Virus record (IMG/VR): IMGVR_UViG_3300017971_000007
Source: a virus
Length of the DNA stretch: 64,000 nt
Reading direction: 5' to 3' (one strand)
The notes beneath the pieces are model-generated. The model saw only the letters and a list, made by a program, of their open reading frames with translations. It ran no database searches and was not told the DNA's origin. Positions 5,390-13,536 of the stretch are shown in pieces. Position 1 is the stretch's first letter. Each line of letters begins with the position of its first letter. The translations under genes were made by a program, and so were the position numbers.

Positions 5390-8300
5390 ATGTCAGCGAC
5401 AGAACTCCCAAGACCTGGAGTGTCGGTAATTCAGCAATTTCGGACTGTGAGCCCGACAATTGTTACTCCAATCTTAGTTCCGTGCATTGTCGGAGCTTCT
5501 TATCAGGTAGTAGAAGCACAAACAACTGACAGCGCGGGAACAACGTCCATAAACAGCGATGCGGCCGTCAGCGTGCCTCCGTCTATCACATCATCTCTGG
5601 CCGGCCTATACACGAATTTGGACGGAAAATCTCTTTTGGTGAGCGTCAATAATGGCCCCGACCAGGAAGTTGTGTTCTCGGACCCAACTGCAGCTGGACT
5701 GAGCGCGTCCCAAGTAAGGTCCCAGATTCTGGCAACCTCTGGAATCAGCGGATGGGCGGCGTATGCCGTGACCCTGGGCGGGAGCTCATACATCCAATTA
5801 AAAGGAAATACGCCAGGCGATGGACAGACCCTAAAAATAATGGATGGGGACGCGAATTCAGATTTGGGTTTTCCGGATTTCTTTGAAGCAAGCGGTTTCT
5901 CCTCATATACTCAGGATAAACGATACATTGCTCAAGGAAACTTCCCAGACCCTAACGATAACATAGATGAACTGGATGTTGATGAGGACAGTATCAGAGT
6001 CTTCGTCAATACCGGATCCCAGCTCAGTGAGATGAAAAGGGACCAGACGTTCCTTCGAAACGGGCATGTATCCTGGATTCAAAGCTCTGCTATCAGTTTT
6101 CCCACGTCCTCTCTGGACGCTAAAACTCTCCAGCTAACGTTTGTGTACGGGGGAGTTGAACAGGTAATCACTTTCGATGGTGATTTCTATGATAATGACG
6201 GGACTCTGGTAGTTCCTGGAATCGCATATGCAGACCCGGGCACGGATACTATCGAGATTCAAAAAAACAACGACACGCCAGTTACAGTGACTTTTGCTTC
6301 TCCAGCAGACATTGACGCAGCAATAACTGCAATCAATGCCGCATGGGCTGGAACATACGCTGGGGAAGATGTGGCATATAGAGCTCTCTCCGACGGTTCC
6401 CCTGACGGAGCCGGAACATTCATCGCGTTCCAGGTCGGAGGAGCAACAGCCACAGGAGATATCGTCAAAGTCATAGAACCTGCAGCCGGGGATGCATTTG
6501 TTGATGTCGGCTTCGTCTCGGGTTCAGGTTCCATGGGTTCGAGCTTAGTCTATTTCATTAATCAGACTCTAAGTTCTCCAGATGACTACCCAGCAGCCAG
6601 TGCGGTGGTAGATGGAGTGACAGATTATCTGAAGCTGTGGTCGTATGACGGATATCTGAAGATTGATAAAGACGGGACCGCTAATGCCTCATTAGGTTTT
6701 TCAACCTCGGCAGATACCGAGCAGTACTCACTGCAGGGTGTGGACGATGGAGACGGCGATACGAAATCCCCGATTATCAGAATCCATAACGAGGATTTTA
6801 CGATAGACCCTACCGGAGCCGAGCTAACCGGCACGGCCGACTTGTCCGGAGAAGTCTATCTCCACAAAATGACCTTCCAGGTTGCCCTGGACGGTCAACC
6901 TATGCAGGAAATCGAGTTCAATGGTGGTCCGATTGTAGCTGATTTGGCGGCTGGGGCCTTCCCCGGAACATGGGACACACAGGTCCTGATTATGGAAGTA
7001 AACGGGACCACGAAGACCGTGACCTTCAGCTCCCCTGCTGATTTAGACGATGTCGTAAACCAAATAAACACGGCTGCTGGACAGCCAGTGGTTTACAGGT
7101 CTGATAGTGTTGGGGCGTACAGTGCTTCCGGTACCTATCTCTCTTTTCAGGTAGGAGGGTCAACCGATGCCGGGGGAGAAATAGAGCTGACCTATACAGG
7201 CTCCACAGCGTGGACGAATATTGGGTTCAGCAGTACTGCCGATGAACAACAGGTTCTGACCTCCTCAGAAATTGAAGCCGCGGTAGAGGCGACATTAGGG
7301 GCGGGTTCCGCAGCAATCGTTTCAAATAATCTCGTCCTGTCATCGGCAGAATACGGTGACGAGTCAAAAATTGAAATCGGGCAGGGTAGCGCCAACGCTA
7401 CCTTAGGATTCACGGACAACGACGTTTCAAGAGGTTCTCCGTTTAAACCGAAATCTGGAGACTATGTGTACGCGGATGGAGAATTCTTGGGAATCGTTAG
7501 CCAGGTAACGCCCGGAGCAGTAAAAACCGATATCCGTCTGGACAGAGAATATTCGTTCTCCACACTACTGAAAAAGAGCTGGTACATGGAGGCTATGAAT
7601 ATTCCTGATACTCTCCCATCAGACAGACCGACTCCGGACTTGGTTGTTGATTTAGCCGGTGACGTGACCCTAAAACATGATTATCTGAGGGATACTCGCG
7701 GCGAGCCTATTAATTCAGCCAATGACCAGATAATCTTGGCCTATAAGGCTTTGAGATTGGATGTTAGCCCCAAGGCTTCAAATCCAAGTCTTTTGACGTT
7801 CGAGGATACAGACGAGCTGGAAACAGCTTTGGCTCCTCTGGACACTGACAACCCACTCGGATTGGGACTGTTTCTGGCTCTGCTAAATGCTCCGGGCGTA
7901 ACTGTTAGCGCAATCGGGGTTGATGCAGTTAGCGCAGATAGCCCGTTCGGAACTCTGGAGGCATTCTCCAGAACAATGAGTTTCCTACAATCAAAAGAAG
8001 TCTACGCAATAGCTCCCCTCACACACGAAAGTGTGGTGAACCAAGCATGGCAGGTTCACGTAAACGAGATGAGCGAGCCCGATTCCAGAGGTGAGCGGGT
8101 AGTTATTATCAATCCGGATATGCCGGATAGAGAATTAGACACTCTGATTGGAAGTGGAACAGATGGAGACTCGACCGGAATAACCAACGAGTTCGATTCC
8201 AAGTTAACGAGTTTGGCCTCCGCGTTATTGGCGGCCGGGATAGACCCAAGCCTTCCTATTCCGGTATCCAGTGGCGTGTATCTGGATATAGCCACCGATG

Positions 8301-10793: not shown

Positions 10794-11096
10794 CTATCCT
10801 GAATTTATCATCAGTGTCAATGAATCTAGTATCAAGACATCCCTGCTATCTAGATTCTTGAATCTCTTTCTTTCGGAGATTAAATCCTCTACCAAATCTC
10901 TCTGTTCTCTGGACAATTCTCTATCTATTACCAGAGACAGAGGAGCTAAATCTTCCCCTAAGAGTGGGAAGAAGATGGATTTGTAAAAAGGGGGAACTTC
11001 TTCCTTGATGTCCTCAGTCTTAAGAAATTCAGGGGGACTTGGAGGTTCTGGAGGCTGTATTTTCAAGAATTCAAAAACCCGACCCTCTTTGGACAT
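10794..11096 (-). CDS. Hypothetical protein
   Basis: 100-aa ORF overlapping the RHH gene; followed by a terminator. Confidence 0.6.
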   Translation of the reverse strand: MSKEGRVFEFLKIQPPEPPSPPEFLKTEDIKEEVPPFYKSIFFPLLGEDLAPLSLVIDRELSREQRDLVEDLISERKRFKNLDSRDVLILDSLTLMINSG

Positions 11097-11262
11097 CCTC
11101 TGTCTCCTGTTTGTTAATGATTGCTCTGATGATCATAGAGGCACTTATTCGTTTTCCGGTAGCCTTTCCGTAAAAATCAGCCAATTTATCGATATAAGAC
11201 TTCTGATGGTCTGATAGCTTAACCATGACGAATCGATTGATACCTTGCTTTTTCTTGGGCAT
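11071..11262 (-). CDS. Ribbon-helix-helix (CopG-like) DNA-binding protein
   Basis: RFVMVKLSDHQKSYIDKLA...ISASMIIRAII. Confidence 0.65.
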   Translation of the reverse strand: MPKKKQGINRFVMVKLSDHQKSYIDKLADFYGKATGKRISASMIIRAIINKQETEDVQRGSGF

Positions 11263-12128: not shown

Positions 12129-12278
12129 GAAGGAGGCCACGGGTTCTGGTACAGAACCCCTAGATATTCGGCCAGAGTGCCGGACACTTAAGGTTCTTGG
12201 ACTAATATGCAGGACCGTGGACTCTGGTAATGGTGCCAGAGTCCAAATTTTATCGCTTAGTAGTGGTTGGTTTTTTCT

Positions 12279-12321
12279 TATCCCCGTACTTGATACCTGA
12301 ACAAGTACGGGGATATTTTTT
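12279..12321 (+). terminator. Intrinsic terminator
   Basis: tatccccgtacttg/caagtacggggata (14-bp arms) followed by T6. Confidence 0.75.
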
Positions 12322-12590
12322 GGGCTGATTTTTTAGCTCTGTTGAATGTCTTGAATCAAGACATTCATATCATGAACTGAAGTTCTTGTCAACTGATCCA
12401 AGATGTACATCCATCCACCTGGATCACCAAAAAAGATGTACAACTGTCCAACCAAAACATGCACCCGTAAGGGTGATTTTGGGGCCGTTTTTGGGGGTAT
12501 TTTCTGAAGCTATCTTCAAGATTTTGCATAACCTGACGCTTAAATCTTGAAGATCGTTTTTTGGAGTCTGTAGTTCTGGGAGGAGGTAGT

Positions 12591-12740
12591 GAATCGATTA
12601 AGAAAAAAATTTTTTTTCTGGAGACGTTCACTTTTCTATATCTTTCTATATATCTTTAAACACGGTTAGTTGAATAAAGAAACAATGAAAGATAGAAATA
12701 AAATATTTCTCCAGAAAAAAAATTTCTTCCTGATTGATTC
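12591..12740. repeat. ~150-bp AT-rich imperfect palindrome in the long intergenic region (candidate origin)
   Basis: gaatcgattaagaaaaaaattttttttctggaga versus tctccagaaaaaaaatttcttcctgattgattc; inner tatctttc/gaaagata and tcttta/taaaga pairs. Confidence 0.6.
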
Positions 12741-12992
12741 TGAGTCAGGGTTCTTCAACTATACTAAACCTCGAAATTTCCATAGATAGCACCAGCTATC
12801 TATGGAAACACTGTTTTGGGTACACCCAAAATTTCGCACGGATCAACTTTTTTTGGACAACGAAGTTGGTTTCAGTGTGTCTGGCTTTATCCCAGCTCAT
12901 GATTGAAGTCAGAAATGGTTACGAGTTGTCCAGTTATTTCGCAGGAGGTACCAGAATCTAGCAAGAAATCTTTCTGAAGACCTAAAAAACAG

Positions 12993-13021
12993 TTGAACGG
13001 CAGAAAAGAAACGATTATAAA
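12993..13021 (+). promoter_or_regulatory. Sigma70-type promoter upstream of the histone gene
   Basis: TTGAAC-17nt-TATAAA, followed by AAGGAGG RBS and ATG at 13042; the -10 lies inside the palindrome acgat-tataa-atcgt. Confidence 0.6.
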
Positions 13022-13041
13022 TCGTCAAAAAGGAGGCAAAC

Positions 13042-13320
13042 ATGCCAAGAGGACGACCGCGCAAAGAAAAAGAAGAGAAAGAAGAAAAGAAGGTGACGAA
13101 GAAGAAGGAAGCCAAAACTGAGGAAGGAGGAAGCAACGGTAACGGTGAAAAGAAGTTCGTTGTTGCTTCCACAGTGAAGACATTCCTCGCGGACAACGAA
13201 ACGAATATCTCTGGGGACCTTGTCCAGAGTCTGAACGAAAAAGTTCAGAGTGTCCTGCAAGGAGCCATTATCCGTGCACAGAACAACGGCCGAAAGACGG
13301 TCAGGCCTGTCGACTTATAG
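13042..13320 (+). CDS. Bacterial-type histone-fold protein with N-terminal AT-hook and charged tail
   Basis: FVVASTVKTFLADNETNISGDLVQSLNEKVQSVLQGAIIRAQNNGRKTVRPVDL resembles Bdellovibrio Bd0055-type histones, including the RKTVxxxD clamp; N-terminal PRGRPRK. Confidence 0.85.
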   Translation: MPRGRPRKEKEEKEEKKVTKKKEAKTEEGGSNGNGEKKFVVASTVKTFLADNETNISGDLVQSLNEKVQSVLQGAIIRAQNNGRKTVRPVDL

Positions 13321-13344
13321 AGGATTTCTGGGCTAGAATTGGTT

Positions 13345-13515
13345 ATGACTGATGCCCAGAAAAAATCGTTTTTCGATGAGCTAACAAAAATTTCCATGGT
13401 AGGCGAAGTCCCTAAAGTTACGTTGAGGGATGTCGCATCTAACCCAAAACCTCCGACAGCGAAAACCCCGCCGATCAGAGTACCTAAACCTCCAACCCTA
13501 TTTAAAAAAATTTAG
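13345..13515 (+). CDS. 56-aa Pro/Lys-rich peptide with FDELTKIS motif (not in ORF track)
   Basis: MTDAQKKSFFDELTKISMVGEVPKVTLRDVASNPKPPTAKTPPIRVPKPPTLFKKI*; N-terminus matches ORF 4308 (SFIDELEKIS). Confidence 0.6.
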   Translation: MTDAQKKSFFDELTKISMVGEVPKVTLRDVASNPKPPTAKTPPIRVPKPPTLFKKI

Positions 13516-13536
13516 GGTTGGAGGTATGGAGGTGAG

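Follow-up and report, generated by a model that had tools for sequence, protein, structure and literature searches.

A predicted face-to-face histone with an N-terminal AT-hook motif encoded by an uncultured phage

Introduction

Histones of bacteria and phages have been recognised only recently. The closest described system is HLp of Leptospira perolatii (PDB 9QT0-9QT2), a bacterial face-to-face (FtF) alpha3 histone that forms a DNA-wrapping tetramer (PMC12701072). In FtF histones the tetramer is held together by a conserved Arg, a conserved Asn (R49 and N53 in HLp) and R55, residues that the dimer histones of the HBb type lack (PMC11390915, PMC12701072). FtF-like histones have also been published from phages; AF2 predicts a tetramer for them, their N-terminal tail of 5-40 aa is rich in Lys, and the class is computational so far (PMC13681535). 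The 'phage histones' of Schwab et al. 2024 (A0A2E7QIQ9) correspond to the VTTHFP of PMC13681535, in which an N-terminal histone fold is followed by a C-terminal tetramerisation helix and the RxTxxxD motif is absent.

The DNA analysed here, called the window below, is one strand of 64,000 nucleotides from IMG/VR virus record IMGVR_UViG_3300017971_000007. It carries the gene for a small protein, P0001, which a first-pass annotation had described as a histone with an AT-hook tail. The features of the locus are listed in Table 1.

Table 1. Features of the histone locus, with positions in the window
Feature	Position	Strand	Evidence or remarks
Histone gene P0001	13042..13320	+	92 aa, stop codon included; homology to alpha3 histones
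Disordered tail, residues 1-38	13042..13155	+	pLDDT 59-64, no secondary structure in alignment-based model
Codons of AT-hook core, P2-R-G-R-P-R-K8	13045..13065	+	Read from sequence; shuffling
Alpha3-truncated histone fold, residues 39-92	13156..13317	+	pLDDT >95; Foldseek to HLp 9qt0
Shine-Dalgarno AGGAGG	13031..13036	+	5 nt ahead of ATG at 13042
Sigma70-like TTGAAC-17 nt-TATAAA	12993..13021	+	Possible promoter, support weak
AT-rich imperfect palindrome with A7T8 and A8T3 tracts	12591..12740	.	Lowest GC, fold z
56-58-aa ORF, SFFDELTKIS motif, PKPP-rich basic tail	13339..13515	+	Gene call L001 3304-3474

Gene and translation signals

An identical product of 92 aa was obtained from two independent metagenome pipelines, JGI (174,485-bp contig) and Logan (35-kb contig). 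It consists of a disordered tail of 38 aa followed by a histone fold of 54 aa at the C-terminus. The reading frame agrees with the first-pass annotation throughout, including PRGRPRK at the N-terminus, the K/E-rich stretch and the C-terminal 54 aa, and the strong ribosome-binding site that had been assigned to it is present (Table 1). Two antisense ORFs that overlap the gene (12909-13196 and 13015-13260) are considered spurious because the plus-strand frame has clear homologues, and a GTG codon at V18 was discarded as an internal start since it has no usable ribosome-binding-site spacing.

A sigma70-like promoter of its own had also been claimed for the gene. The site is there, and TTGAAC-17-TATAAA occurs only once in the 64-kb window, but at least one such site was found in 19% of shuffled windows, which is not significant, and a promoter scan made no call at this position. 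The evidence for a promoter of P0001 is weak.

Histone fold and family

In the alignment-based AF2 model of P0001, residues 41-92 have a pLDDT above 95. The helices are alpha1 (residues 42-51), alpha2 (60-81, 22 residues) and alpha3 (89-91), and the chain ends at L92. Loop 2 carries the RKTxxxD motif as R84-K85-T86-V-R-P-V-D91, with the R84-D91 clamp. The best Foldseek matches of the model were all histones, with HLp on top (TM 0.93, rmsd 1.0 A, 56 residues), followed by the archaeal FtF histone HTkC and HBb and then by eukaryotic H4 and H3.

A phmmer search of the PDB with P0001 found HLp (9qt0, E 5e-8). An exhaustive search of 1.84 billion representatives yielded 115 representative homologues, which are singlets of 55-130 aa and doublets of ~119 aa. 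A profile of 75 singlets matched HLp (8.9e-23), HTkC (2e-15) and HBb/Bd0055 (4e-14) in the PDB, with archaeal histone A and HmvA reaching just 3e-4 to 2e-3. Residues R78, N82, R84, T86 and D91 are at least 90% conserved in these 75 homologues. Scans of P0001 against Pfam and PHROGs gave nothing above threshold (CENP-X, E 0.039). The single histone fold with an R..D clamp that had been proposed is thus borne out by Foldseek, by the profile and by the R84-D91 pair.

The features of the alpha3-truncated class (Schwab et al. 2024) are found in P0001, namely the order of the fold, an alpha3 of 3-4 residues, an alpha2 that is shorter than that of nucleosomal histones, and RKTxxxD. Judged by sequence and model, it is an FtF alpha3-truncated histone of the HLp/HTkC kind. 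The Bd0055/HMf-like type originally proposed had to be replaced by the FtF tetramer type in view of R78, N82 and R84 and the truncated alpha3. P0001 is not of the Bd0055 (HBb) dimer type, because it keeps the R/N tetramer residues (R78 and N82) where Bd0055 has Ser and Asp, and it is not of the HMf type, with a full alpha3 of ~10 residues and a four-helix-bundle tetramer, because its alpha3 is truncated.

Two further observations were made on the wider family. Doublet (pseudodimeric) alpha3 histones of ~119 aa (P0122-P0233) are very numerous in metagenomes, and the few with a name belong to candidate-phyla bacteria (Peregrinibacteria, Altimarinota) or to Woesearchaeota. Some singlets and doublets (P0004, P0007, P0078, P0088 and P0109) appear to start with a signal peptide or membrane anchor ahead of the histone fold, a feature not expected of DNA-binding proteins; these homologues group in the tree with the copy from a 619-kb 'viral' contig (L006).

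Tetramer and DNA contacts

The residue number in P0001 equals the number in the HLp paper plus 29, and R78, N82 and R84 are the counterparts of HLp R49, N53 and R55. When residues 36-92 were predicted in four copies, the score was 0.88, with 0.00 for the best control, a pass that may reflect likeness to HLp and HTkC because their structures are solved. Contact agreement in the four-copy runs was at least 96% and partner pLDDT at least 91. In calibration of the oligomer tool with two-copy jobs, the mark was reached by 20 of 30 solved homo-oligomers and by 1 of 23 single chains. In the four-copy model the scored chain forms the full handshake interface with one copy and contacts a second copy through residues 77-78, 81-82, 84, 88 and 90-91. 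This second contact is the HLp dimer-dimer interface (compare HLp R49, S52, N53, R55 and T61; PMC12701072). Foldseek, the AF2 model and the multi-copy prediction together returned a histone-fold match and rebuilt the handshake dimer, in keeping with the first reading of the protein. P0001 can be modelled as an FtF tetramer, and formation of this tetramer is predicted.

Nine DNA-contact residues of HLp were mapped on P0001. Five are kept (A42, S43, K46, G58 and T86), and the others are changed (K15 to T44, K21 to A50, T27 to I56 and T56 to K85). In the proposed mechanism, two chains would pair into a handshake dimer, and two dimers would join via R78, N81, N82, R84, V90 and L92 into a closed tetramer like that of Leptospira HLp. 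By homology with HLp, the tetramer would wrap ~60 bp of DNA through backbone contacts and with no sequence preference.

N-terminal tail

The tail of P0001 contains 14 basic residues (11 K, 3 R) and 9 acidic ones (9 E). All three of its Arg and both of its Pro are in P-R-G-R-P-R-K. A palindromic P-R-G-R-P core followed by basic residues is an AT-hook of the HMGA type. The disordered tail of ~36 aa with a canonical AT-hook core that had been claimed was recovered with a length of 38 aa, low pLDDT (Table 1) and the motif at the extreme N-terminus.

RGRP appeared in 32 of 20000 shuffles of the P0001 tail (0.16%). A survey of 83 singlet homologue tails (1990 residues) found it in two, against 0.01 expected, and two or more occurrences arose in 1 of 20000 shuffles; the motif in the P0001 tail is not a product of chance. 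The second carrier, P0094, is a protein of 121 aa with KKRGRGRPRK followed by a mixed K/E/D stretch, and its gene lies directly 3' of a phage-type topoisomerase II gene on a contig of 42% GC. The remaining homologue tails are mostly plain, Lys/Ala/Pro-rich and H1-like, with no hook, and a few of the tails are acidic. The Pfam model AT_hook (PF02178) gave no row for P0001 at E up to 10, which is not decisive because short-motif models rarely report; HMMER filters drop most weak matches to such motifs.

The two hook carriers are on the lowest-GC viral contigs (42-44%), and the hook-less relatives are at 45-74% GC. This association is only a trend. As a strict rule it was rejected, since the tail of one relative at 45% GC (L021) carries no hook and a copy from archaea at 42.5% GC is tailless.

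Each tetramer would present four disordered tails of 38 aa, every one with a single P-R-G-R-P-R-K hook followed by a K/E-rich linker. The hooks probably insert into narrow AT minor grooves, which would raise the affinity and favour binding at A/T tracts. Added affinity is expected because two of the alpha1 lysines with which HLp contacts DNA are lost in P0001. The nine Glu of the tail may weaken DNA binding.

The main alternative concerns the tail only and is compatible with the rest of the description: the RGRP could be incidental, and the tail a plain basic or mixed-charge disordered segment like those of other viral and of planctomycete FtF histones, with no AT preference. It draws on the hook-less K/A/P-rich tails of most homologues and on the syntenic phages, which manage without a hook; because these closest syntenic relatives have none, the hook is dispensable for core function. 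A single AT-hook binds weakly in HMGA proteins, which use three, and this too counts for an incidental motif. It has to be set against the very low chance expectation, the complete palindromic core with R-K behind it, the same RGRPRK in the distantly related phage histone P0094, and the four hooks that a tetramer would present. An incidental RGRP is the less probable account of the tail, although one that deserves serious weight, and an AT-hook that contributes to binding is preferred.

Flanking DNA

The proximity of the gene to the most AT-rich palindrome of the window, as first annotated, was confirmed. The palindrome begins the comparison at ~300 nt from the gene on its upstream side; at 24.7% GC it is poorer in GC than any other 150-nt stretch of the window, and its DNA fold has a z of -5.5 versus shuffles. 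The ~900 nt upstream of the histone gene (12129-13041) are without a credible gene and contain hairpins at 12279-12315, 12507-12559 and 12777-12808, with several perfect 14-bp hairpins. The region may serve as an origin, for packaging or in regulation, and the palindrome is a possible preferred target of the AT-hook. In a related phage (L005, described below), CATATGTATATG repeats occur in an AT-rich patch (5500-5560) that precedes the histone gene by ~400 nt and takes the same relative place; this patch and the palindrome region may represent a shared origin or regulatory region. On the minus strand, a basic ORF of 63 aa (11071-11262) that is divergent from the non-coding region resembles by eye a ribbon-helix-helix regulator, and Pfam and PHROGs gave no supporting match for it.

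The small ORF directly behind the histone gene (Table 1) is possibly co-transcribed with it and ends inside a 9-bp hairpin (13487-13516), just before the thymidylate kinase (Tmk) gene. The motif GTATAAGA occurs 10 times in the window against 2.1 expected, always in the direction of the local genes (26957, 28261, 42103, 42964, 46080 and 46210 on the plus strand; 54897, 57846, 60047 and 62988 on the minus strand), and probably represents a promoter element specific to the phage. The first 26 kb of the window, with the region upstream of the histone gene, contain no copy of it.

Phage setting and conservation of the locus

The source is an uncultured phage of ~175 kb. The window consists of closely packed, co-oriented small genes, among them those for a tail-sheath-like protein of 1243 aa (PHROG match) and an endolysin-like protein. 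Downstream of the histone gene are genes for Tmk, a MazG-like protein, ThyA, DHFR, RNase HII and a phosphoribosyltransferase (PRTase). That the histone is phage-encoded, as had been stated, agrees with the tail-sheath-like gene, with Tmk, ThyA, DHFR and RNase HII, and with synteny to complete IMG/VR phages.

Among 50,697 GenBank phages there was no match to 10 kb of the window by megablast and none to the histone by tblastn. A structural protein of 241 aa shares just 27-28% identity with Vibrio phage D69-like phages and Salmonella phage Arash (180-187 kb). A scan of IMG/VR with P0001 alone gave no match; four viral contigs (L003-L006, 139-619 kb) were reached there only with an alignment of 12 sequences as query. 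Their histones are 61-66 aa long and none has a hook. Each record has one clear histone gene, with a weak partial second match in one of the four. Searches of BFVD gave merely weak matches, to uncharacterised Caudovirales proteins, a cluster look-up of the histone returned no taxa, and a large profile search found mostly 119-aa doublets and no further tails for the survey.

L005 is from a complete phage genome (178,259 bp, terminal repeats) and keeps the order sheath-like protein, 241-aa protein, histone, Tmk. Compared with the window, its sheath-like protein is 72% identical and its 241-aa protein 79%, with lower values for the histone (44%), RNase HII (37%) and Tmk (36%). The histone locus, between the tail genes and thymidylate kinase, is in the same place in the related complete phages of ~178 kb, and the histones of these syntenic relatives are 66 aa long with no AT-hook. 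In L004 (177 kb) the 241-aa protein has 69% identity, and a helicase gene follows the histone gene. On the contig of P0012, the best singlet match (55% identity), a small ORF stands between the histone gene and Tmk, the arrangement of L009. The histone genes of L007 and L021 adjoin topoisomerase II. P0087 and P0022, the nearest relatives of P0094, are on phage-like contigs, P0087 at 1.7 kb from split topoisomerase II genes. Based on the loci in L005, L004 and the P0012 and P0087/P0022 contigs, the histone is a conserved, fast-evolving component of modules for replication or nucleotide metabolism in large phages of at least two lineages. The tail with the hook is a lineage-specific addition.

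Proteins with a J-domain (HPD motif) are encoded next to the histone gene on two unrelated phage contigs, upstream in L003 (5274-5969) and downstream in L007 (1031-1147). This neighbourhood may be a coincidence or a chaperone link.

Most cellular relatives that share the C-terminal motif belong to Planctomycetota. In a tree on 56 columns, which is largely unresolved, P0001 falls in the half with most phage copies; the grouping with phage copies was recovered, but the split is unsupported (7/82). Because of the poor resolution of the tree, no phage clade, donor lineage or gene origin is claimed.

Proposed function

The explanation that we favour, with moderate confidence, is that P0001 is a tetrameric, DNA-wrapping phage histone whose AT-hook tails add affinity and a bias toward A/T tracts, and that it acts on DNA in the infected cell within the replication module. 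The protein would organise or compact DNA in the infected cell during replication. A role at this stage appears most likely because the gene opens the nucleotide-metabolism/replication module and keeps this position in related phages.

A bolder version would have the AT-hook tails make the histone sequence-selective, with nucleation on A/T tracts such as the upstream palindrome, spread from there, and selective chromatinisation of the phage genome for origin architecture or as a shield against host nucleases or silencers. This version is considered doubtful. If true, P0001 would be the first histone of a prokaryotic virus with a targeting function in its tail, as in eukaryotic histone tails and variants.

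It was also considered that P0001 is an early product of the host RNA polymerase, whose tetramer coats or condenses the host nucleoid and shuts down host transcription or replication. The sigma70-like site directly upstream of the gene would suit such a role, as would the non-specific binding of HLp, which reorganises the nucleoid when expressed in E. coli (PMC12701072). The promoter evidence is not significant, however, there is no sign of discrimination between host and phage DNA, and the position of the gene within a replication/nucleotide-metabolism module is conserved; host takeover is judged improbable.

A DNA condenser that is packaged in the virion and injected with the genome, as with the internal proteins of T4 or the H1/AT-hook proteins of Lu11/PaBG-like jumbo phages, would agree with a histone gene that comes after the tail module and with the SFFDELTKIS motif of the next ORF, a candidate capsid-targeting tag. 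P0001 itself is without a tag of this type, however, and in four other phage lineages the histone gene is among replication genes (Tmk, helicase or topoisomerase II). A wrapped tetramer would also be a poor fit with densely spooled capsid DNA, and packaging is considered very improbable.

Even less credence is given to P0001 as a site-specific architectural factor for the adjacent palindrome, acting in origin or promoter remodelling and not as a general chromatin protein. The closeness of this most AT-rich stretch with its A-T tracts is in favour, and so is the repeat-bearing patch upstream of the L005 histone gene, but the L005 histone has no hook, FtF histones bind non-specifically, and A/T runs of at least 10 nt number 48 across the window (~1 per 1.3 kb). 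A dominant-negative subunit that disrupts host chromatin through mixed dimers or tetramers with a host FtF histone is barely credible: interface residues are common to P0001 and cellular FtF histones, and FtF histones occur in Spirochaetota, Planctomycetota, Bdellovibrionota and Myxococcota, but P0001 sits with other phage copies and not with cellular ones in the poorly resolved tree, which argues against recent capture from a host.

Significance

The favoured reading, a wrapping tetramer with AT-hook tails, is an incremental gain, because tailed FtF histones of phages are already published; a bacterial-type histone encoded by a phage is no novelty by itself, as this kind had been described in phages before. 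The new element is the AT-hook at the N-terminus. AT-hooks are not mentioned in PMC13681535 and PMC11390915, and a literature search did not find the combination of an AT-hook with a face-to-face histone. P0001, which is small, single-copy and easily expressed, combines two well-understood DNA-binding devices, a wrapping tetramer and a minor-groove hook, and therefore offers a direct test of targeting or strengthening by tails on prokaryotic-type histones. The conserved place in the replication module of at least two lineages of large uncultured phages suggests that these phages regularly organise DNA with histones in their infection cycle.

Comparison with known systems

HLp is the nearest known protein. 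In addition to the close superposition of the folds, it shares with P0001 39% identity, the truncated alpha3, the R-D clamp, the tetramer residues and the predicted dimer-dimer contact. It differs in its length of 63 aa and its unstructured N-terminus of 7 residues, whereas P0001 is phage-encoded and has a 38-aa tail with an AT-hook, and in the contact lysines K15 and K21, which P0001 has replaced. The published phage FtF-like class fits P0001 by its description, as a tailed-phage gene with a Lys-enriched N-terminal tail of suitable length; the P0001 tail stands apart in its mixed charge and in the hook at its very N-terminus.

HBb/Bd0055 of Bdellovibrio bacteriovorus (PDB 8CMP, 8FVX, 9EZZ) is like P0001 in its truncated alpha3, its RKTV loop, its profile match (see above) and its TM of 0.82-0.86. 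It acts as a dimer, with Ser and Asp at the FtF Arg and Asn positions, both of which P0001 keeps. The VTTHFP are, like P0001, phage-borne alpha3 histone folds, but the layout is opposite: in P0001 the fold is C-terminal with nothing after it, and RKTxxxD is kept.

The tail finds its counterparts elsewhere. Narrow AT minor grooves are the expected target of the AT-hooks of HMGA and of the AT-hook-like RGR/QGR motifs in the xenogeneic silencers Lsr2 and H-NS, and P0001 has the P-R-G-R-P core followed by basic residues in common with them. P0001 carries one hook per chain, on a histone fold, whereas HMGA carries three. The nearest eukaryotic analogy to the hook of P0001 is provided by the SPKK minor-groove motifs on the tails of H2A.W, H2B and H1.
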